A DNA stretch of 64,000 nt, taken from NCBI GenBank assembly GCA_052034405.1, contig JBPOIO010000020.1, positions 9,699-73,698 of the forward strand, written 5' to 3'. The notes beneath the pieces are model-generated. The model had not been told where the DNA came from, did not search any database, and saw only the letters and a list, made by a program, of their open reading frames with translations. Below, in pieces: positions 17,261 to 30,119 of the stretch. The DNA is from Candidatus Magasanikiibacteriota bacterium (GTDB lineage Bacteria > Patescibacteriota > Patescibacteriia > Magasanikbacterales > UBA922). Position numbers and translations under genes: made by a program. How positions within the stretch are numbered: position 1 is the first letter of the stretch; every line of letters begins with the position of its first letter.

Positions 17261-17273
17261 TCTGTATTTTCAA

Positions 17274-17302
17274 AACAACTGCCTCAAGCGGTTGTTTTTT
17301 TA
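17274..17302 (+). terminator. Rho-independent terminator after rpsI
   Basis: AACAACTGC / GCGGTTGTT stem plus T7. Confidence 0.55.
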
Positions 17303-17346: not shown

Positions 17347-20295
17347 ATGGATACTGTAGAAATAGAAAAACTGCTCGAAGATAATGAGAGGTCTCTGATT
17401 GAGATCTATTTTGATTTGCAGGCGCAATTTGAAGAAAAATATGGGGCTAATACGGTGGTACTGATTGAAGTGGGATCGTTTTTTGAAGTCTATGGAGTAG
17501 AGAGTGATGAAATCAAAATTGGAAAACCAAAAGAAATTGCCGAAATTTTAAACCTTCAACTCACTCGGCGCAATAAACAATTTCCAGAAAATTCCTTGAA
17601 AAATCCATTGCTTGCTGGTTTTCCGGTAGCAACTTTTGATCGCTATATTGCGAGGCTTATTCAAGAACATAAATATACTATTGTTGTAGTGCGCCAGGCA
17701 GGGTTGCCTCCACATATTCGGCGTTATGTAGAACGTATTATTTCTCCTGGTGTGAACTTTGATTATTCATTGGGGCGTGATAATAATTTTATTGCATCTC
17801 TTTTGATCGATGAAATTCATGGGTTGTATTCTGTTGGTTACAGTGCACTTGATGTGACAACTGGAAAAACTTATGTTGAGGAAATTCAGAGTACCAAAGA
17901 AGATTCCAATTTTGCACTTGATGAAGTGTTTCGTTTGCTGCGCAGCTATCCTACAAGTGAAATTTTGTTGACTTTTTTGAGTACTGACATTGACCAGTAC
18001 AAAGTTCGGCAGTATTTGGAAATTTTGGAAAGTGATGTCAAAATAAATACAAAACGTTTGAAAATTTCCTATCAAAATGAACTTTTGAAACGGACCTATA
18101 ATGTTCAATCTTTTTTGTCAGCCATTGAATTTTTGGATTTGGAAAAAAAACCATTGGCATCTGAGTCGCTTGCTGTTTTGGTTGATTTTATTATTGATCA
18201 TGACAGTCAAATTATTCAAAAACTGGAAAAACCAATTATTTTATCAAATGAAAATTATTTGTATTTGGGAAATAATCCACTCGAGCAATTGAATATTATT
18301 GGGACGAATCTCAATGAATTGCATATTGCTTCGGTGATTGATTACACTCTGACGAGTATCGGTGCGCGCCTTCTTCGTGAACGTTTGTCAAATCCAATTA
18401 CAAATTCTACAGAAATTGAACAGCGTTATAATTTGTCAGAAATTTTGGGTGAAGTGCATTTGTCTCTTGATCAAGAACTTCGTCATGTCTATGATTTGGA
18501 GCGTATTATTCGTCGCATTCAACTTGCGCGTTTGCATCCATTTGAAATAAATTTTTTGTATGATTCACTCAAAAGTGCAGATTGTATTGTGCAGTCACTG
18601 CAGAATATAAAAAATCATAGAGTTTTGGAAGAATTTTTTCAAGAAAAAAACAGGCTTCAAGATTGTTTGCGTTCACTTGAAAAAATATTTGATTTTGAAC
18701 AAACGAGTCGAGTTGCACTGCAGGCTATTGATACGACTATTTTTCAAGTTGGATTTCATGCCGAGCTCGATAATTTGATGCGTAGACGTGCGGATCTTGA
18801 AGAAAAGCTCGAGATTATTCGTGGAAAAGTTTTGGAGGTTCTCGAAAGTGAAATAGGAAAAAAAGAAAGAGACTTTGTAGAAATTCGCCAACTGGATAAA
18901 GAAGGACATTATATTACTCTTACAAGAAGTCGTTTTGCCCTTATTGAAGAAAAACTTAAAACAACATTTGTGTCTCTTGATGGCACTGTCTATGCGTTTT
19001 CGGATTTTTCTTTTAAAACACAAACAACAAACGTAAAAATTACTGCTCCTATAATAGATCGTATTTCCGAGGAGATTGTTTTGCTACAAGGAAAAATTGC
19101 TGCGACAACTAGAGAATTGTATATTCAAGAATTGCATAAATTGGAAGAGAACTTTTTGAATTTGTTTATTGCAACTTCTTCTTTTTTGGCCAAAATTGAT
19201 GTGGCTCTGTCAAATATAAAAGCAAGTATCAAATTGAATTTGTGTCGGCCAGAAATTGTAGCATTTGACAGTGAGCCCTTTATGGAAATTTCCGACTTGC
19301 GGCATCTGCTCGTCGAGGCGCGTGAAGAAAATGGTATTTATGTACCAAACGATGTATTTTTGGGAAATAAAAAATATGCGCAAAAGGAATCCATTTTTAC
19401 ACAGATGATACAAGAAAATATTCGTGGTGTGCTCCTCTATGGAATCAATTCGAGTGGAAAATCTTCGTATATGAAGAGTATTGGTGTGGCGGTGATTTTG
19501 GCACAGAGTGGTTTTTTTGTACCAGCCGAGTCTATGCGTTTTTCAATATTTTCTGAAATTTTTACGCGTATTTTGGCGCGAGATAATTTTGAAAAAGGAT
19601 TATCCAGTTTTGCAGTAGAGATGTTGGAACTCAAAAATATTTTCAATCGTTGCAGCAAGAGAAGTTTGATCTTGGGAGATGAAATTAGTCATGGAACAGA
19701 AACACTTTCTGCCTTGGCTATTGTGAGCGCAACCATTGAACATTTGGCACTCAAAGATTGTTTTTTTCTTTTTACTACGCATTTGCACCAACTGTGCAAT
19801 TTGGAGAGAATTCAAAAGATAAAAGAAGTTCGAAGTGTGCATTTGCAAGTGTGCTATGATGCTCAAAAAGATAAACTTATTTTTGAACGTAAACTCCAAG
19901 CTGGAAGTGGAAGTAGTATTTACGGACTTGAATTTGCCGAGTCGCTTCATATTGATAAGGACTTTATGAAGCGTGCGCAAACTATACGAAAAGAGTTGGC
20001 CGAGGATTATCAGGAACTTGAACTCTTAACAAAAAAACAAAAAAGCAAGTATCACAAAGAATTGTATTTGTCTTCCTGCGCTATTTGTAAAAAAATGGTG
20101 GAAGATACGCATCATATTGCGCCCCAAGAGATTGCGGATAGTGATGGCAATATTGGGCACTTTCACAAAAATCACAAATATAATTTGCTGCCACTATGCA
20201 AAGACTGCCATAATCGGGTACACGAAGGGAAGCTGATCATTCGTGGATTTGTTATGACGAGTCATGGTCTTGAAATAGATTTTGACGAAAAATAA
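17347..20295 (+). CDS. MutS-family protein with a C-terminal HNH endonuclease domain (MutS7-like)
   Basis: Domain I-like N-terminus with GSFFEVY (the Phe-x-Glu mismatch motif). ABC ATPase domain V with Walker A INSSGKSSYMKS and Walker B LILGDEISHGTE. C-terminal HNH/zinc motif CAICKK...HHIAPQ...N..LLPLCKDCHNRVH. Confidence 0.8.
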   Translation: MDTVEIEKLLEDNERSLIEIYFDLQAQFEEKYGANTVVLIEVGSFFEVYGVESDEIKIGKPKEIAEILNLQLTRRNKQFPENSLKNPLLAGFPVATFDRYIARLIQEHKYTIVVVRQAGLPPHIRRYVERIISPGVNFDYSLGRDNNFIASLLIDEIHGLYSVGYSALDVTTGKTYVEEIQSTKEDSNFALDEVFRLLRSYPTSEILLTFLSTDIDQYKVRQYLEILESDVKINTKRLKISYQNELLKRTYNVQSFLSAIEFLDLEKKPLASESLAVLVDFIIDHDSQIIQKLEKPIILSNENYLYLGNNPLEQLNIIGTNLNELHIASVIDYTLTSIGARLLRERLSNPITNSTEIEQRYNLSEILGEVHLSLDQELRHVYDLERIIRRIQLARLHPFEINFLYDSLKSADCIVQSLQNIKNHRVLEEFFQEKNRLQDCLRSLEKIFDFEQTSRVALQAIDTTIFQVGFHAELDNLMRRRADLEEKLEIIRGKVLEVLESEIGKKERDFVEIRQLDKEGHYITLTRSRFALIEEKLKTTFVSLDGTVYAFSDFSFKTQTTNVKITAPIIDRISEEIVLLQGKIAATTRELYIQELHKLEENFLNLFIATSSFLAKIDVALSNIKASIKLNLCRPEIVAFDSEPFMEISDLRHLLVEAREENGIYVPNDVFLGNKKYAQKESIFTQMIQENIRGVLLYGINSSGKSSYMKSIGVAVILAQSGFFVPAESMRFSIFSEIFTRILARDNFEKGLSSFAVEMLELKNIFNRCSKRSLILGDEISHGTETLSALAIVSATIEHLALKDCFFLFTTHLHQLCNLERIQKIKEVRSVHLQVCYDAQKDKLIFERKLQAGSGSSIYGLEFAESLHIDKDFMKRAQTIRKELAEDYQELELLTKKQKSKYHKELYLSSCAICKKMVEDTHHIAPQEIADSDGNIGHFHKNHKYNLLPLCKDCHNRVHEGKLIIRGFVMTSHGLEIDFDEK

Positions 20296-20305
20296 GTTGA
20301 AAATA

Positions 20306-20340
20306 AAAAGAACTCTCAAAAATGAGAGTTCTTTTGTGTT
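20306..20340. terminator. Bidirectional rho-independent terminator
   Basis: AAGAACTCTCA-AAAA-TGAGAGTTCTT followed by T-rich sequence. Confidence 0.55.
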
Positions 20341-20344
20341 TAGA

Positions 20345-21080
20345 AACTAAGATCGGGGCGCTGCTTCGTGCGGAAGCCGGGAGGGGCCTGTGGCGGGTGC
20401 TGCTCAGGTGGGGTCGGGCAGGGGAGGCATGAGCATGGCAGGCGGCATCAGGACATTGCCGTCGGGCGCCCCGTAGGAGCGCACGCAGGTGTAGCCTTTG
20501 GCCACGCTGCTGTAGGCGCAGGCGACATAGGCGCCATCGGCTTGTGGGCCTTCGGCCTTAGCCTTCACGGCCTCGAGGGCCTCTTTCTGGGTCGCCCAGT
20601 AGGGCGTGACCTTTCCCGTTACCACGTAGGGGCTGCTGCTGGTTGTGGGCGGGCAGTAGGGCATGTCGCCGTCGAATGGACACATGGCCCGTGCCGTGTT
20701 TGGCCTCAGGCGCTGGCCTTGCTCGCTCAGGCAGCGGACGTATCCGCCAGGTACCGAGCAATGGTACTTTCCAGCTTCCACCTCGACGCGGCCCAAAAAC
20801 AACTTGTCCGGTCCGAAAATGTCACAGGTTTGGGCGTCCTGCGGGGCCTCGAAGCCTGGCCCTTTGAGCTCGCAATCTCCCTTGCCCAGGGGTTGAGCCA
20901 AGGGGATGAACCACTTGGCCTCCTCCGCGCTGGGCATCGTGCTGCCGCAGGCTGACAGGATCAGGGCGGCGAGGAAGACGAGGACGATGGCGATCATGCG
21001 CAGCATGAGATGACTCCTAATCAGCTGAAATTGCGGCATTTGGGCTGCCGCCTGGCCCGGTGCACGAAGCACCGCGATCT
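20345..21080. other. Compositional island of ~65-68% GC in a ~34% GC background, bounded by imperfect inverted repeats
   Basis: Abrupt GC shift at both borders. Left end is GATCGGGGCGCTGCTTCGTGCGGAAGCCGGG. The reverse complement of the right end is GATCGCGGTGCTTCGTGCACCGGGCCAGG, sharing GATCG and a CGNTGCTTCGTGC core. Confidence 0.6.
20404..21006 (-). CDS. Cys-rich secreted lipoprotein encoded in the GC-rich island
   Basis: Signal peptide plus lipobox MLRMIAIVLVFLAALILSAC-GS. AGGAG Shine-Dalgarno 7 nt upstream. Nine cysteines. GC3-rich codon usage unlike neighbouring genes. The ORF-track version is extended N-terminally to 21090. Confidence 0.55.
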   Translation of the reverse strand: MLRMIAIVLVFLAALILSACGSTMPSAEEAKWFIPLAQPLGKGDCELKGPGFEAPQDAQTCDIFGPDKLFLGRVEVEAGKYHCSVPGGYVRCLSEQGQRLRPNTARAMCPFDGDMPYCPPTTSSSPYVVTGKVTPYWATQKEALEAVKAKAEGPQADGAYVACAYSSVAKGYTCVRSYGAPDGNVLMPPAMLMPPLPDPT

Positions 21081-21177
21081 TAATTTCCAATTGGTCAATT
21101 GTAATGTACGGATAGCTGATTATATCAAAAAACTTCTCTTTGTCAAGAGAAGTTTTGTTAAATTTGGCTCTACTGAC

Positions 21178-23127
21178 TTATCTTTTATATTCAAAAATCC
21201 AGATATTATCATCAATAATCTGCATGCGATCGGCTGTTTTGCTCGCTCCGGCAATAATTTTTTCTGCATTGGCCCAATATTTATTGACCACAAAATATGC
21301 TTTGTTGACATTGACAATATTCATTGCTTCTATCATATACTCACGTTTTTGGCCCTCATAAATCATTTTTCCGTAGTATTTGTACATCTCGCCGCCAGTT
21401 GGAATGGAATAATAAAATAGTTGGCCCAAAGGGGTGTCAAAATATTTTGCAAAACTATATTCGGTGAGAGCAGAAGCTGATACGAGTTGGTCAGAAAGTA
21501 CAATATAGTTATACTCTGAATTTTGATTGTGAATCCATTGTACCGCATTGAAATCACTCTTCGTGACATTGTATCCAGGAAAACGTGCTTTGATATTACG
21601 CTGCGGGTAAGAGAGATAAAGGGCCAGTGTGAGTGAGAGAGGAATGAGACAAAAGACAAAAATATTTTTTAACTGTTTTTTGTTTTTGATCATTTCATAG
21701 AGAAAAGCAAATCCATACATGGCAAAGGGCAAAAGAAAAATGATACTGCTACGAATAAGACGCAGTGGATAATCTCCTTGTTCGTAGGCAACCACATCTG
21801 GGAAAATAATCCAACTGCGCAGGAGCCAGGCATCGATAAAAAGTGCAAGTGCGCTGAGTGGAAAAATCCAGACAAGGAGTGATTTTTCTTTTTTTCGATA
21901 TTGTACAAAACCAAAAAGCGCGAGCAAAAGTACGATTGGAATAATAATTTTTTCAAAGAAATAGAGAATTTCAAAACGCAGTGGGCTACTTTTGGCATAC
22001 CAATATGGATCTTTGAAGAGGTCCAAAAATGAAGAGATATGAGTGAATGGATTGCCAAATGTTGGGATTTTTCCTCCTATACGAAGACCATTGAGAGTAA
22101 ACATGGCAGGGAGCAAGAGACAAAGACCAACAAATGTGAGAGCAAGAATGGAGAGGACAAATGTTTTCTTTGTTTGAAATTTTTGTATGAGAAACACGCT
22201 GAGGGTGAAGATAAAAATTGGGGCTCCAATAAGTGGGTGGGTAAAGAGCGCAGCGAGGGAGATCAAAAAAGAAGGGAGCAGTGATTTGGGATTTTGAATC
22301 TGTGAAAAATTCAAAAATATGAGAACAATTGTAAAGAACAAAACAAGGTTGTGCGGTGTCGTGAGTGAGAGAAGTAAAAATGGGACAAAAGCCAAAATCC
22401 AAAAAGAAATGTAGCGGAGAAATTCGGAGTTTATTGTTTTTTCGAGACTTTTGAGAATGGTCTTGGGTAAAAAGATTGCTGCAAGAGCCGGAACAAGCCA
22501 GACATCGATAAAAAATATTTTGATCTGTGTAATATTGGAGAGGAGTACTACGAGTGAATACTGTCCAATATAGTAAGGTTGTTTTGGGGAAATAAATCCA
22601 TGTGCTTGGATCCAATTTTCGGTAACGCGGTGTATAAAGGCGTCAAAGCCATACCCAAGAGGGTAGATAATGGCGGCAACCGAGAGTCCTACAAAGAAGT
22701 GGAGTGATGTAAGAAAGATATTTTGGGTCGATGAGTTATTTTTTTTGTAGTTCAAAAAGAGCAGAGCTGTCGCTAGGGTATAGACAAGAAAAAAAGAGGG
22801 GTCAATTTCGGTCCATGGTGAGGCTGCCAGGTCAAAGGTTCTGTGAAAAAAGAGCTGGCTTAGAAGAAAAATATCGAGTAGAACTATGGCAATACTTGTG
22901 GGTTGAATTTTTTCTTTTGGAATCTTCCATTTTGGCTTGAAAAGTATAAGTGGAATGGCGATGAGAAAAAATAGAATAAAGGATACAAGGGGAGTGATTT
23001 TGTAGCTATAATAGACGAAACTTGCCAAAATAATGAGAAGAGATAAGAACCCCAAAGAATCAAGGGAGCAAGAACTTCTGTCTATAGAGCGAATTTTGAG
23101 CCAAAACTTCTTCATAACTATTGTCAA
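21178..23127 (-). CDS. Large polytopic membrane protein with a C-terminal extracytoplasmic domain (possible glycosyltransferase or polymerase)
   Basis: About 12 predicted TM helices followed by a ~170-aa soluble C-terminus. No confident family assignment. Confidence 0.45.
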   Translation of the reverse strand: MTIVMKKFWLKIRSIDRSSCSLDSLGFLSLLIILASFVYYSYKITPLVSFILFFLIAIPLILFKPKWKIPKEKIQPTSIAIVLLDIFLLSQLFFHRTFDLAASPWTEIDPSFFLVYTLATALLFLNYKKNNSSTQNIFLTSLHFFVGLSVAAIIYPLGYGFDAFIHRVTENWIQAHGFISPKQPYYIGQYSLVVLLSNITQIKIFFIDVWLVPALAAIFLPKTILKSLEKTINSEFLRYISFWILAFVPFLLLSLTTPHNLVLFFTIVLIFLNFSQIQNPKSLLPSFLISLAALFTHPLIGAPIFIFTLSVFLIQKFQTKKTFVLSILALTFVGLCLLLPAMFTLNGLRIGGKIPTFGNPFTHISSFLDLFKDPYWYAKSSPLRFEILYFFEKIIIPIVLLLALFGFVQYRKKEKSLLVWIFPLSALALFIDAWLLRSWIIFPDVVAYEQGDYPLRLIRSSIIFLLPFAMYGFAFLYEMIKNKKQLKNIFVFCLIPLSLTLALYLSYPQRNIKARFPGYNVTKSDFNAVQWIHNQNSEYNYIVLSDQLVSASALTEYSFAKYFDTPLGQLFYYSIPTGGEMYKYYGKMIYEGQKREYMIEAMNIVNVNKAYFVVNKYWANAEKIIAGASKTADRMQIIDDNIWIFEYKR

Positions 23128-23800: not shown

Positions 23801-25882
23801 ATGCAAGTATTTTTGATTCTTTTATTTTTTTTCTACATACTTTGGACTGGTTTTTTGTGGAGTAAAGTTTTGAACTCTGTTTTTGGCTTGCGAGAAAAAT
23901 ATATTAATATTCCACTTGGTATTTTTACAAGTTTTTTGTTTTTGAGTTTTTCTGCTGCTGTATTTGTAGTGTGGTATAAAATTACATGGCCGGTGATTTC
24001 TTTTGTTTACATAGTGGGTGCAGCACTGCCTTTTTTGTTTTGTAAAAAAATAAAATCTGTGGATGGTGCTGTTGAAATATCCGAAGAACTTTTTGGAATA
24101 TTTCCAAAGAGAAAATTTTTGTTATTTTGTTTTGCGGCTCTATCACTTTTACAAATTGCTATTCTTGTTTTGTGTCAGAGTGACAAAGTTCTGACAACGC
24201 CTTGGCAAACCCTGCACCCTTGGTATTTGTATAACTTTTTTTTGTTAACTTTTTTGCTTGGGGTTTTGCTTTTTTCGCGTCTTTCATTTCAACTCAAATT
24301 TTTTCTTGTGTTGATCTATTCTGTGTTATTGCATCTGTATTTGCCCTTGGTTCATGTGATGCCTTGGGGAGGGGATGTTTGGCGTATGATTGGTGTGGAG
24401 CAAAAATTGGCGGCTGGGGAAGTGCAACTGCCAGGTTTGCCATATGCGCTGTGGAATCCCTACAAATATACCTATGGACAGCTTTGGGGCCTGATGGCAC
24501 TTTTGAACAAAAGTCTAGGGATTTCTCTTGTTGTTTTGCATCGTTGGTTTATTCCACTTTTGTGGTCTTTGACTTTGCCTGTGCTTGGCTTTTCTTTTGG
24601 AAAAATTATTTTTGAAAATAAAAAAAAGGCGCTCTTTTTTGCTTCACTTTGTTCTTTTCCTTTTGCCTTGCAAGCCATTGGAAGTATTACGGTTTCTACA
24701 AGTTTTGGATTTTTGACATTTGTATTTGCGCTCTTGTTATTTTTTATATCTCAAAAAGAAAATACGCTGTGGCAAAAAAGGATTGTCTTTTCGCTTGGAA
24801 TTTTGATGTTATTTGGATATGCGCTCTATGCTTTGTTATTTTACTTTGTAGTTGGAGTGTCCTTTGCTTTGAAAAACTATTGGAATAAAAAGTATGTTCC
24901 TGTGGCTGTGTGTCTCTTTGCTCTCTTGCTTTTTCCTTTGGTGGATTTTATTCTTGGTTTTAGTCATTTTCCACAGTCATTTTCTATTCTTACTTTTTTC
25001 AAACAGCTGCTTGGACAATTTGGAGGTTGGTATTTTGCAAGGCCGATTTCAAATATGGAAATTTCAAGTGCAAATATTTTGTTTAACCAAGTTCCTGCAT
25101 CTGCATATGTAGAAAATATTTTTTCAGCATTTCGTTGGCCTATAGTGCTACTGAGTATTTTTGTAGCATTGTTTCTTGTATTTGGAATCTATTCTCTTAT
25201 AAAAAAAGAAAAAAATACAGTAGTCTGGCTTCTCGGAGTTTTGCTTTGGTCGGTTCTTGGTGGTTATATTATTGGGTGGTATGTTTTGACGGGTGATCGT
25301 GTATTTGTGCGTCGCCTGGATTCTGTATTGGCATTTTTGCTTCTGCTGTTTACTCTCTATGGTATTTTTTCTTTTGATTTTTCAAAAATTATTTCCAAAT
25401 TTTCAAGAGAAAAAAAATATATTTACTTTTTTCTTGTAACTTTCTTTTTTTCTTTTTGTGCAACGACTATTTATGCAACAGGGCCAGATGTACGAGTTGT
25501 AAGCATTGACGAATATAATAGTGCGCAGTATATTTTTGGACAAGAAAAAAAGAATCCAAAGCCTTGTGTGCTTGCAGATACCTGGACACTGCTCGCACTC
25601 GAGGGGCTTTCGAGCGGGCATATTGTTGGTGGGGGCTTTCCTATAGATGCAAATTTTGGTCAGACTGAACGAGTGAGGCTTTATAATGAACTTCTCAAAA
25701 ATCCAGATATTCGTATTATTCCACAGATTCAGGCGCTTTTGGATGTGTCTTCTTGTTATATTGCAGTGAGTCGTGATCAGCTGGACCCTCGGATAGAACT
25801 GGCTTTTAATAACTTTTTGGGTGATCTGGTCTTCAAATCTGGTCCTATGCTAGTCTGGAAATTGGAGTTGAAAAAACCATAA
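23801..25882 (+). CDS. Large polytopic membrane protein with a C-terminal soluble domain (hypothetical)
   Basis: Fourteen or more hydrophobic helices and a ~150-aa C-terminal domain. Confidence 0.45.
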   Translation: MQVFLILLFFFYILWTGFLWSKVLNSVFGLREKYINIPLGIFTSFLFLSFSAAVFVVWYKITWPVISFVYIVGAALPFLFCKKIKSVDGAVEISEELFGIFPKRKFLLFCFAALSLLQIAILVLCQSDKVLTTPWQTLHPWYLYNFFLLTFLLGVLLFSRLSFQLKFFLVLIYSVLLHLYLPLVHVMPWGGDVWRMIGVEQKLAAGEVQLPGLPYALWNPYKYTYGQLWGLMALLNKSLGISLVVLHRWFIPLLWSLTLPVLGFSFGKIIFENKKKALFFASLCSFPFALQAIGSITVSTSFGFLTFVFALLLFFISQKENTLWQKRIVFSLGILMLFGYALYALLFYFVVGVSFALKNYWNKKYVPVAVCLFALLLFPLVDFILGFSHFPQSFSILTFFKQLLGQFGGWYFARPISNMEISSANILFNQVPASAYVENIFSAFRWPIVLLSIFVALFLVFGIYSLIKKEKNTVVWLLGVLLWSVLGGYIIGWYVLTGDRVFVRRLDSVLAFLLLLFTLYGIFSFDFSKIISKFSREKKYIYFFLVTFFFSFCATTIYATGPDVRVVSIDEYNSAQYIFGQEKKNPKPCVLADTWTLLALEGLSSGHIVGGGFPIDANFGQTERVRLYNELLKNPDIRIIPQIQALLDVSSCYIAVSRDQLDPRIELAFNNFLGDLVFKSGPMLVWKLELKKP

Positions 25883-29113: not shown

Positions 29114-29173
29114 ATTTTGCTTGAGAAGGGCAGCCTCAGTGAGGGGCTGCTTTTTTGTATTTGGGTTTTAGTC

Positions 29174-29203
29174 TTGACAAAAACAGCTATTTTATGCTAT
29201 ATT
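29174..29203 (+). promoter_or_regulatory. Sigma70-like promoter TTGACA-18-TATATT
   Basis: AT-rich native-looking promoter immediately 5' of the GC-rich leader of the 29290 gene. Confidence 0.45.
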
Positions 29204-29289
29204 TACTTACTTTGCCTCATCCGAGGCCGAGGAGGTTTGCCCCCACCGAGTGGAAGAGGGGTTTACAAAGACAGGAAGGAGCTTCCATA

Positions 29290-29907
29290 ATGGAGCCCAA
29301 GCCCCAGAGCTGGCAGGAGTGGCTGGTGTTCCGCCAAGCTGCTTCGATGATGACTGTGGCTCGCATCCCGCTCACGGAGGTCCGTGGGTGGGGGATGCAG
29401 CAGGCGGGTGACTTCGCTCGTCCCGATGGGAAATTTTGGGCTCTCAAGGGAGTCCAGGTTTCTCTCGCGGGGCGAGAGGTATCGACCTGGGACCAGCCCC
29501 TCATCGAGGAGTATGGTCAGGGGGTCGTGGTGCTGGTCATTGACCCGACGCAGGATCGCTTCCTGCTTCGGGCAAAGGCCGAGCCCGGCAACGCGGCACT
29601 GGGTTGTGTGGCGCTTGCGCCCACGATTCAGTGCAGTCAGTCGAACCTCACCCAGGTCCACGGCGGCAAGCGGCCGCCGCGGGTCGAGCTCCTCGATGGG
29701 AAGGAGATCGACTGGATCCGCATCCTCCAGGATGGGGGGAAGTTCTACTGCAAGTTGAACATCTATCACATCCTCTACCTTTCCCACGAAGAGGTGGGCG
29801 TGCTCAGCGTGGATGAACGTTGGTTCACGCGCCGGGAGATCCAAGAGGCCTTTCTCGCGGGGGTGGTGAACAGCCACCTCGCCGAGGTCCTTGGCCTGCT
29901 CATCTGA
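29290..29907 (+). CDS. NDP-hexose 2,3-dehydratase-like single-domain protein (GC-rich foreign gene)
   Basis: GC ~62%. AGGAAGGAG Shine-Dalgarno. Motifs REVSTWDQPL, KAEPGN, PTIQCSQSN..HGG resemble the EvaA/TylX3 2,3-dehydratase fold, which acts on dTDP-4-keto-6-deoxyglucose. The ORF-track start at 29155 is upstream and unlikely. Confidence 0.45.
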   Translation: MEPKPQSWQEWLVFRQAASMMTVARIPLTEVRGWGMQQAGDFARPDGKFWALKGVQVSLAGREVSTWDQPLIEEYGQGVVVLVIDPTQDRFLLRAKAEPGNAALGCVALAPTIQCSQSNLTQVHGGKRPPRVELLDGKEIDWIRILQDGGKFYCKLNIYHILYLSHEEVGVLSVDERWFTRREIQEAFLAGVVNSHLAEVLGLLI

Positions 29908-30119
29908 GCAGCCTAGGACGGCTCTCGAAATAGCGCAGTTCTATGCGTGCCCCTGACAATTTTGTCGGGGAAGAGGGCTTCAAGATAGCCCTAGAGAGGC
30001 CCGGAGTGATCCTTGGGAGGGAATCACAAGAATTCGGGCATGCAAAAAGCAGCTTTGTACAAAGGCTGTTTTTTTATTGCTTTTTTTTTGCTTTTTCGCT
30101 ATGATAGCTTCATATTTCT

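Follow-up and report, generated by a model that had tools for sequence, protein, structure and literature searches.

Which kind of MutS protein ends in a nuclease domain, and could it repair mismatches on its own in a genome where no mutL is in sight? The question is raised by a gene at positions 17347..20295 (plus strand, stop codon counted) of a 64,000-nucleotide stretch of contig JBPOIO010000020.1 from a Candidatus Magasanikiibacteriota bacterium; the whole of this stretch is referred to as the window. According to the literature, Magasanikbacteria are part of the Parcubacteria/Patescibacteria group. Patescibacteria have minimal genomes (about 1 Mb), and their DNA-repair repertoire is poorly known. 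An earlier description based on the letters of the window (the sequence-only reading) regarded the gene product as a member of the MutS7 lineage which combines mismatch recognition with nicking. Our analysis leaves hardly any doubt that the protein is a MutS7. As the best explanation of its function we consider, with fair confidence, a five-domain mismatch sensor whose HNH domain acts in a recognize-and-nick type of repair without MutL.

Architecture of the MutS-HNH fusion protein

The gene, termed mutS7 in the following, starts with ATG and is free of internal stops in the open reading frame (ORF) list of the window. It encodes a MutS-HNH fusion of 982 amino acids (aa), as supported by the ORF list, Pfam, NCBIfam and an AlphaFold2 model. 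The mismatch-binding domain I (residues 34-136; 17446..17754; this and all further domains on the plus strand) matched Pfam MutS_I with an E-value of 4.7e-9 and 36.9 bits (cut-off 20.6). It carries the Phe-x-Glu motif G43-S-F45-F-E47-V-Y49 (GSFFEVY; 17473..17493), recognized by conservation and by alignment to E. coli MutS, where it pairs with GDFYELF (F36/E38). F45 and E47 were unchanged in all 30 bacterial homologues aligned. When the giant-virus MutS7 proteins were added, the Phe remained invariant and the Glu was conserved in at least 90%. Domain V, which comprises the ABC ATPase and the dimerization helix-turn-helix (residues 696-884; 19432..19998), matched MutS_V with an E-value of 9e-47. 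Its Walker A motif GINSSGKSS (residues 699-707; 19441-19467), Walker B residues D778-E779, signature SSFAVEM (753-759) and catalytic-loop histidine H812 are all invariant across the family. The domain matches E. coli MutS residue by residue as far as E. coli residue 796, and this stretch includes the conserved helix-turn-helix with its counterpart at E. coli residues about 766-796. The intact ORF, the mismatch motif and the ATPase thus were found as the sequence-only reading had described them.

Between these two domains, the core and levers of domain III (residues 312-622; 18280..19212) were matched by Pfam MutS_III with an E-value of 9e-21. The connector domain II (residues 147-282; 17785..18192) gave a MutS_II match below the cut-off (E 4e-4) and an alpha/beta fold in the AlphaFold2 model. 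The clamp, domain IV, lies within domain III (about residues 469-566; 18751-19044) and gave a sub-threshold MutS_IV match (0.08); in the model a beta-sheet clamp (511-566) is bordered by a long lever helix on each side (472-503 and 568-630). The whole-protein model, built with 30 homologues, reached a mean predicted local distance difference test score (pLDDT) of 80.7 and a predicted template modelling score (pTM) of 0.70. In a Foldseek comparison it aligned over ~890 columns with the G:T mismatch complex of E. coli MutS (1e3m; E 5e-48), domain II included, with a target-normalised template modelling (TM) score of 0.79-0.82 against mismatch-bound E. coli MutS. Since the model superposes on E. 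coli MutS in this way, all five MutS1 domains are structurally present, connector and clamp included.

The C-terminal part of the protein is occupied by a nuclease domain of the HNH (beta-beta-alpha-metal, zinc-knuckle) type (residues 911-963; 20077..20235), delineated by profiles, motif and model. Its motif reads C911-x2-C914 ... H922-H923 ... N946 ... C951-x2-C954-H955 ... H959. C911, C914, H922, H923, N946, C951, H955 and H959 were invariant throughout the set, giant-virus MutS7 included, and only position 954 varied. The N-to-H spacing of 9 matches the description of the octocoral mitochondrial protein mtMutS (PMC3166940). In the Pfam scan of the whole protein the HNH matches stayed below threshold (HNH_2 0.004, DUF968 7e-4, HNH 0.6). 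Scanned alone, residues 885-982 matched HNH_2 with 22.2 bits and an E-value of 1.3e-4 (gathering cut-off 21), DUF968 with 4e-5 and HNH with 0.011. Matches to HNH_2 were obtained for 22 of 23 family members (best E 6.9e-6) and to HNH for 20 of 23 (best E 3.6e-6). Hence, HNH profiles recognize the last ~100 aa as the sequence-only reading had expected, and no match to the Smr domain was found.

A model of the domain alone (pLDDT 84) places the two adjacent histidines on a strand, followed by a hairpin and a helix with CxxCH..H, and this order is the layout expected of beta-beta-alpha-metal. Topology, catalytic His, Asn, helix His and Cys pairs, the features by which the His-Me finger/HNH superfamily is defined, were all seen in the motif, the profiles and the secondary structure of the model. 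In contrast, comparison with solved structures gave weak results. The sole Foldseek match of the isolated domain in the PDB was the HNH restriction enzyme TagI with a non-significant E-value of 0.28, and among PDB sequences the HNH profile found IscB and a SAVED-HNH protein (E~1-3). We therefore regard the predicted HNH assignment as secure by motif, profile and conservation, with weak support of the fold from solved structures. The protein ends in a conserved beta-hairpin tail (G-F/Y-x-M/Q-T-S-x-G-L-x-L; residues 964-982; 20236..20292), identified by alignment and model. In this tail, which is likewise seen in giant-virus and Campylobacterota proteins, G967, T971 and G974 are invariant, and the model strands span 963-971 and 974-981. 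Over the whole family, functional residues of the mismatch, ATPase and HNH sites are invariant although the sequences share just 50% identity.

Assignment to the MutS7 family

MutS7 has been defined as a combination of domains I, III and V with a C-terminal HNH domain, and the protein was proposed to be self-contained (PMC3166940). The product of mutS7 has domain I with Phe-x-Glu, domain III, an ATPase with intact Walker A/B motifs and a C-terminal HNH domain with the H-H-N-H residues. The same study described MutS7 as lacking domains II and IV on the basis of domain-database searches (PMC3166940). Here both domains gave weak Pfam matches and were present in the model. The stated absence most likely reflects a sensitivity limit of the older searches and not a family trait, and we did not count it against membership.

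Family membership was also supported by trees from which the HNH region had been removed. These were neighbor-joining (NJ) trees of 90 sequences and 852 columns with 200 bootstraps, comprising 31 Patescibacteria, 28 Campylobacterota, 24 giant-virus type and 7 MutS1 sequences, the latter from six bacterial phyla or classes and one archaeon. They are based on a distance method alone and on a sample without octocoral sequences. The protein clustered with giant-virus MutS7 and Campylobacterota MutS-HNH proteins and apart from MutS1, which was separated from all other sequences with 100% bootstrap support. Identities followed the same order. The window protein shares 40-51% identity with Campylobacterota proteins over the full length, 31-36% with giant-virus proteins and 22-25% with MutS1. 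Its mean identity is 58% with Patescibacteria, 49% with Campylobacterota, 34% with giant viruses and 23% with MutS1.

Two other assignments were considered and rejected. An orthologue of MutS1 would be expected to reach the equivalog cut-offs of NCBIfam; the protein scored 380 bits with its first-ranking model, MutS NF003810 (cut-off 480) and 288 bits with TIGR01070 (cut-off 642), carries the HNH domain at its C-terminus and is separated in the tree. Assignment to MutS2, the placement that would have contradicted the sequence-only reading, disagrees with the presence of domains I and II, with the lack of an Smr match and with a score of 115 bits with mutS2 TIGR01069 (cut-off 400), well below the 380 bits obtained with MutS.

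Proposed mismatch repair with or without MutL

Starting from the observed architecture, catalytic-residue conservation, family membership and housekeeping context, we infer a series of steps that extends from dimerization and mismatch binding to nicking, MutL independence and strand discrimination. The protein would dimerize via the domain V helix-turn-helix and thereby encircle the DNA. Phe45 and Glu47 of domain I may then detect a mispair or small loop, and ATP binding at the intact Walker A/B site would switch the clamp. The tethered HNH domain is predicted to cut a strand near the mismatch, supplying the incision that elsewhere is made by MutL or MutH, after which resynthesis or excision could proceed without MutL. 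In MutS1 the C-terminal tail mediates tetramerization and beta-clamp binding. In the window protein this tail is replaced by the zinc-knuckle HNH domain. That the window protein carries out self-contained mismatch repair as a whole appears to us an evenly balanced proposition.

The sequence-only reading had noted that mutL is missing from the window. This holds, as tblastn with E. coli MutL found nothing with E<0.04 and MutL motifs occurred in no frame. Neither was mutL found in the flanks of about 80 homologous loci. A conserved partner gene was not apparent either. When the ORFs of 82 loci were clustered, just housekeeping neighbors recurred, in 17 loci at most, and no nuclease, helicase or MutL was among them. 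A related situation is known from epsilonproteobacteria, which lack several mismatch repair genes; MutL and MutH are both missing from the genome of Arcobacter butzleri (PMC2147049), and Arcobacter is a genus cited as carrier of MutS7 (PMC6163669). Arcobacter, Sulfurimonas denitrificans and Wolinella are also devoid of the hypervariable G:C tracts seen in Campylobacter and Helicobacter (PMC2147049). We infer that this absence of tracts may be linked to MutS7. In the window, A/T runs of 5-8 nt were 1.5-1.9x more frequent than expected from a first-order Markov model, and A/T runs of at least 9 nt were depleted (4 observed vs 14.5 expected). No G/C run exceeded 6 nt, but only 1.6 runs of at least 7 nt were expected, so that this is uninformative on active repair.

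These data also bear on the possibility that the protein is a MutS1-type sensor which works with a MutL encoded elsewhere, its HNH domain being an accessory (e.g. a MutL-activated substitute of MutH) or vestigial. The connector domain of E. coli MutS binds MutL, and the window protein has the full five-domain MutS1-like fold including this connector. Furthermore, 64 kb of the genome are visible, and MutS and MutL were reported for some lineages of the candidate phyla radiation (CPR), which corresponds to Patescibacteria (PMC8406219). On the other hand, the scores below the NCBIfam equivalog cut-offs, the separation from MutS1 in the tree, the lack of mutL in the window and in the flanks of homologous loci, and the A. 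butzleri genome argue against a MutL partner. The invariant catalytic residues additionally argue against a vestigial HNH domain. We therefore judge this explanation improbable.

Several points weigh against the proposed recognize-and-nick repair without MutL. We came across no biochemical assay of a MutS7, be it for mismatch binding or for nicking, in the searchable papers, and a strand-discrimination signal was not evident. The sequence QELELL (889-894) sits where E. coli MutS has its beta-clamp motif and was considered as such a motif; it was rejected, as the family does not conserve the Gln. A mutL gene may possibly be located elsewhere in the genome, of which the window covers 64 kb, and both MutS and MutL have been reported from other CPR groups, the Gracilibacteria and Absconditabacteria (PMC8406219). 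Finally, with one HNH domain per subunit, a dimer could equally make a double-strand break.

The last point leads to a different use of the same protein. Mismatch-triggered cleavage of both strands by the two HNH domains of a dimer might feed homologous-recombination repair, as suggested for plant MSH1 with its GIY-YIG domain, or serve heteroduplex rejection. In the latter case intermediates of homeologous recombination and of transformation would be destroyed, and the protein would be an anti-recombination barrier instead of a post-replicative repair enzyme. An intact sensor coupled to a nuclease without visible strand-discrimination device fits this idea as well, as does the lack of a conserved partner gene nearby, and for MSH1, another MutS-nuclease fusion, a function via double-strand breaks has been proposed (bioRxiv 10.1101/2024.07.17.603841; 10.1101/2020.02.13.947598). 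However, the sequence gives no preference for double- over single-strand cutting, and housekeeping context and universal conservation suit either role. Octocoral mitochondria with mtMutS evolve slower than hexacoral mitochondria without the gene, which was read as repair (PMC3166940), although this slow evolution is also compatible with repair through double-strand breaks. In sum we consider double-strand cleavage rather doubtful, and recognize-and-nick repair by MutS7 remains the preferred explanation.

Distribution of MutS7 in Patescibacteria, Campylobacterota and giant viruses

MutS7 counts as a hallmark of Mimiviridae, it is cited as the sole DNA-repair gene of an animal mitochondrial genome, and in bacteria it is said to occur in "a small number of lineages". 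The sequence-only reading accordingly called the lineage rare. Our searches do not bear this out. Of 8,000 candidates scored in the homologue search, 2,333 had an E-value of 1e-5 or lower. The best 120 of these share 49-100% identity with the window protein at near-full coverage, and nearly all are 966-1,033 aa long (2 were shorter). Those with names derive from Candidatus Magasanikbacteria, Kerfeldbacteria, Nomurabacteria or the "Patescibacteria group", and the databases label them plainly as "DNA mismatch repair protein". These names place the window in a CPR bacterium (Magasanikbacteria-like) and not in an epsilonproteobacterium. With a profile of the HNH tail alone, E-values of 1e-10 or lower were obtained for 1,485 representatives of 50%-identity clusters, and in the full-length matches the tail was located at the C-terminus of ~900-1,100-aa proteins. 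The MutS7 lineage thus is large in metagenomic data, and many named members are metagenome-assembled genomes (MAGs) of Patescibacteria.

Further relatives come from Campylobacterota. Six of them (P0095, P0099, P0107, P0113, P0116 and P0110) are 50-51% identical to the window protein across 100% of the length, and the P0095 cluster contains proteins named Sulfurimonas sp. A scan of GTDB with a virus-first alignment mostly found Campylobacterota (Sulfurovum, Sulfurimonas, Nautiliaceae, Nitratiruptor, Sulfurospirillum, Arcobacteraceae, Thiovulum and Hydrogenimonas), interleaved with MAGs of Magasanikbacteria and Nomurabacteria. In IMG/VR, 517 giant-virus loci encode full-length relatives with 31-36% identity and E-values of 1e-150 to 1e-171, in which residues about 16-980 align, HNH tail included. 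Giant-virus MutS proteins also led the ranking when the model was compared to viral structures (BFVD) by Foldseek. Rank 4 was 'DNA mismatch repair ATPase MutS subfamily 7 [Tetraselmis virus 1]' with 1.8e-58; MutS8 of the same virus reached 8.8e-13.

The taxonomic labels of four contigs deserve a remark. The MutS7 genes of PAZD01000060.1 (L093), PASS01000009.1 (L094) and JAIXRC010000030.1 (L169) fall in the giant-virus clade, and the respective MAGs are labelled Acidimicrobiaceae, Neomarinimicrobiota and Cryomorphaceae. L093 and L094 have a GC content of 29-32%. These three probably are giant-virus contigs mis-binned into bacterial MAGs. The fourth, CAZMHV010000002.1 (322,915 bp), is labelled 'uncultured Gammaproteobacteria bacterium' and encodes a MutS7 that shares 69% identity with the window protein and is preceded by the same RpoA-L17-L13-S9 genes with 66-76% identity. 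Evidently it is a Patescibacteria genome under a wrong taxonomic label.

In the searchable literature we found no paper that treats MutS7 and Patescibacteria together. Apparently, a known family was correctly identified in an unreported and seemingly major host group, and neither a new mechanism nor a new protein family is involved.

In the NJ trees, the Patescibacteria proteins formed a clade with 99-100% bootstrap support. The giant-virus clade was supported by 75% in the 90-sequence tree (range 75-97%) and the union of Patescibacteria and Campylobacterota by 74.5%. Patescibacteria were consistently nested within the diversity of Campylobacterota, whose monophyly was recovered in 0-2%. The group of Patescibacteria and Campylobacterota without Nautiliaceae and the locus L147 obtained 80-99% across distances, column filters and outgroup sets, and 46% with domain V alone. 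A single character of the HNH domain points in another direction. Position 954 (20206-20208) is Cys in Patescibacteria (31/31) and in viral proteins (24/24), and His in Campylobacterota (28/28), deep branches included. Hence, in the 90-sequence alignment the second zinc knuckle reads C-x2-C-H in Patescibacteria and giant viruses and C-x2-H-H in Campylobacterota. This split favors reciprocal monophyly, as otherwise a two-nucleotide reversal would be needed, and thus conflicts with the nesting in the NJ trees. Because the two disagree, what is established is that Patescibacteria MutS7 either is the sister group of the Campylobacterota proteins or branches from within them; transfer may have gone in either direction.

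Tentatively, and with more reserve than for the mechanism, it may be suggested that a large block of Patescibacteria has MutS7 as its sole mismatch-repair system, MutL-independent and contained in one polypeptide, and that the bacterial pool was the source for giant viruses and thence for octocoral mitochondria. If true, Patescibacteria and Campylobacterota harbor a bacterial pool of much greater size and age than assumed. The occurrence of MutS7 as a conserved gene in housekeeping context in Patescibacteria widens its bacterial host range and makes the common account of its origin, from epsilonproteobacteria to giant viruses, less simple. Furthermore, small Patescibacteria genomes allow presence or absence of MutS7 to be set against mutL and mutS1 content and mutation spectra.

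Genomic neighborhood and GC-rich patches

As described in the sequence-only reading, mutS7 follows a ribosomal operon. The genes directly upstream are S4-rpoA-L17-L13-S9, recognized by ORF content and by 84-91% identity to Pfam-labelled syntenic genes in a related locus (L085). In a relative with 81% identity the same order S13-S11-S4-rpoA-L17-L13-S9-mutS7 was found. In another with 57% identity mutS7 is divergently oriented beside the tuf-S10 operon, and in Sulfurovum it often is located near thrS-infC-rplT. A ribosomal-gene neighborhood of mutS7 therefore was found in two Patescibacteria lineages and is stable in 69-81% identical relatives. Just 3' of the rpsI stop (17272-17298), an AT-rich hairpin with a T-run behind it (AAAACAAC...GTTGTTTTTTT) was noticed by eye; it is below the GC-pair rule of the terminator scanner. 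Judged from its sequence, this hairpin suggests that mutS7 may be transcribed apart from the ribosomal operon.

Just past the mutS7 stop, a palindromic hairpin with a 13-bp stem (20306..20335) was found by the terminator scan and inspection of the sequence. It is likely a bidirectional terminator between mutS7 and the next gene. This gene lies in a GC-rich patch (about 20350-21090) directly 3' of mutS7, in which the 1-kb bin 20001-21000 has 55% GC vs about 37% in the background. On the minus strand (20404-21003, ORF list) it encodes a Cys-rich putative lipoprotein with the signal MLRMIAIVLVFLAALILSAC and without Pfam match. Its promoter is a perfect sigma-70 consensus, TTGACA-16-TATAAT, found by a scan at 21146-21119 on the minus strand, and the gene is bracketed by the hairpins 20306-20335 and 21129-21156.

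The sequence-only reading had spoken of a foreign GC-rich island following mutS7. The patch itself is confirmed in composition and position, but its foreign origin is not supported. In two relatives (L085, 13000-13700; L086, 3403-3891) whose flanking genes are 63-91% identical, the same slot is taken by a 43%-identical GC-rich homologue; the patch in L085 has 63-70% GC vs about 37% in the flanks. The presence of this orthologue in the same slot also indicates that the patch is not a private assembly artefact. Only four homologues were found among 5.8 billion proteins, and no high-GC donor among them. We regard the gene as a lineage-specific orphan of extreme composition and fast divergence. 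In more distant relatives it is not linked to mutS7, whose own GC content matches that of the genome, unlike the adjoining patch.

These neighborhood data are relevant to the idea that the protein is a mobile or defense ATPase-nuclease that is merely MutS-like and, as a selfish HNH element or an anti-phage system, was gained together with the GC-rich 'island'. HNH domains are common in mobile and defense genes. Horizontal spread over viruses, Campylobacterota, Patescibacteria and organelles is clear, and a compositionally odd gene adjoins mutS7. Nevertheless, PADLOC assigned no defense family at E<=0.01, mutS7 agrees with the genome in GC content whereas the adjoining patch differs, and its position next to ribosomal genes is stable in the relatives mentioned above. 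It is present as a single copy in the window, with neither repeats nor an integrase noted, and its mismatch motif is invariant. The terminator hairpin separates it from the GC-rich gene, and the two are unlinked in distant relatives. A mobile or defense function thus is highly improbable, and the housekeeping context is in line with the preferred assignment as a repair protein.

Further downstream, two polytopic membrane proteins of 649 and 693 aa without Pfam match are encoded at 21178-23127 (minus strand) and 23801-25882 (plus strand), on either side of a gene for a CDP-alcohol phosphatidyltransferase. Relatives keep the 649-aa protein, at 43-63% identity, on the downstream side of mutS7. 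A second GC-rich patch (29150-29910; 57% GC in the 1-kb bin) encodes a 250-aa NDP-hexose 2,3-dehydratase domain (Pfam 2.3e-33) and sits in an otherwise AT-rich sugar-modification cluster with epimerase and glycosyltransferase genes. This patch likely is a horizontal acquisition from a high-GC organism.

Comparison with known systems

With MutS1 (MutS of E. coli and Thermus, MSH2/3/6), the window protein shares the five-domain fold, Phe-x-Glu, the ABC ATPase motifs and the helix-turn-helix dimerization element. It differs in its low identity (22-25%) and in having an HNH domain in place of the tetramerization domain or beta-clamp motif. MutS2 has a similar domain III/V core and a C-terminal nuclease as well. 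In contrast to the window protein, MutS2 is without domain I and carries Smr, and similarity is just weak (PDB MutS2 matches with E 1e-13 to 1e-14). Plant-type MSH1 likewise unites a mismatch sensor with a C-terminal nuclease and is scattered in eukaryotes, few bacteria and giant viruses (10.1101/2024.07.17.603841; 10.1101/2020.02.13.947598). According to these papers, its nuclease is of the GIY-YIG type, and it represents an independent fusion in a separate MutS lineage.

Closer relatives are found within MutS7. Octocoral mtMutS, compared by its description and not by sequence, has domains I, III and V and a C-terminal HNH domain (PMC3166940, PMC6163669). The giant-virus proteins of Mimiviridae/Imitervirales share the defining architecture, the HNH motif and tail and align over the full length, whereas they are only 31-36% identical, form a separate clade and in many cases extend 50-120 aa past the HNH tail. 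MutS7 of Campylobacterota (Sulfurimonas, Sulfurovum, Arcobacter, Nautiliaceae) differs by host phylum and by the C-x2-H-H knuckle, and the Patescibacteria proteins form their own clade. Most of these proteins are of like length (~915-1,045 aa) and have domains I-V, HNH and beta-hairpin tail in the same order, their genes lie in housekeeping neighborhoods, and they have many residues in common with Patescibacteria that differ in giant viruses.

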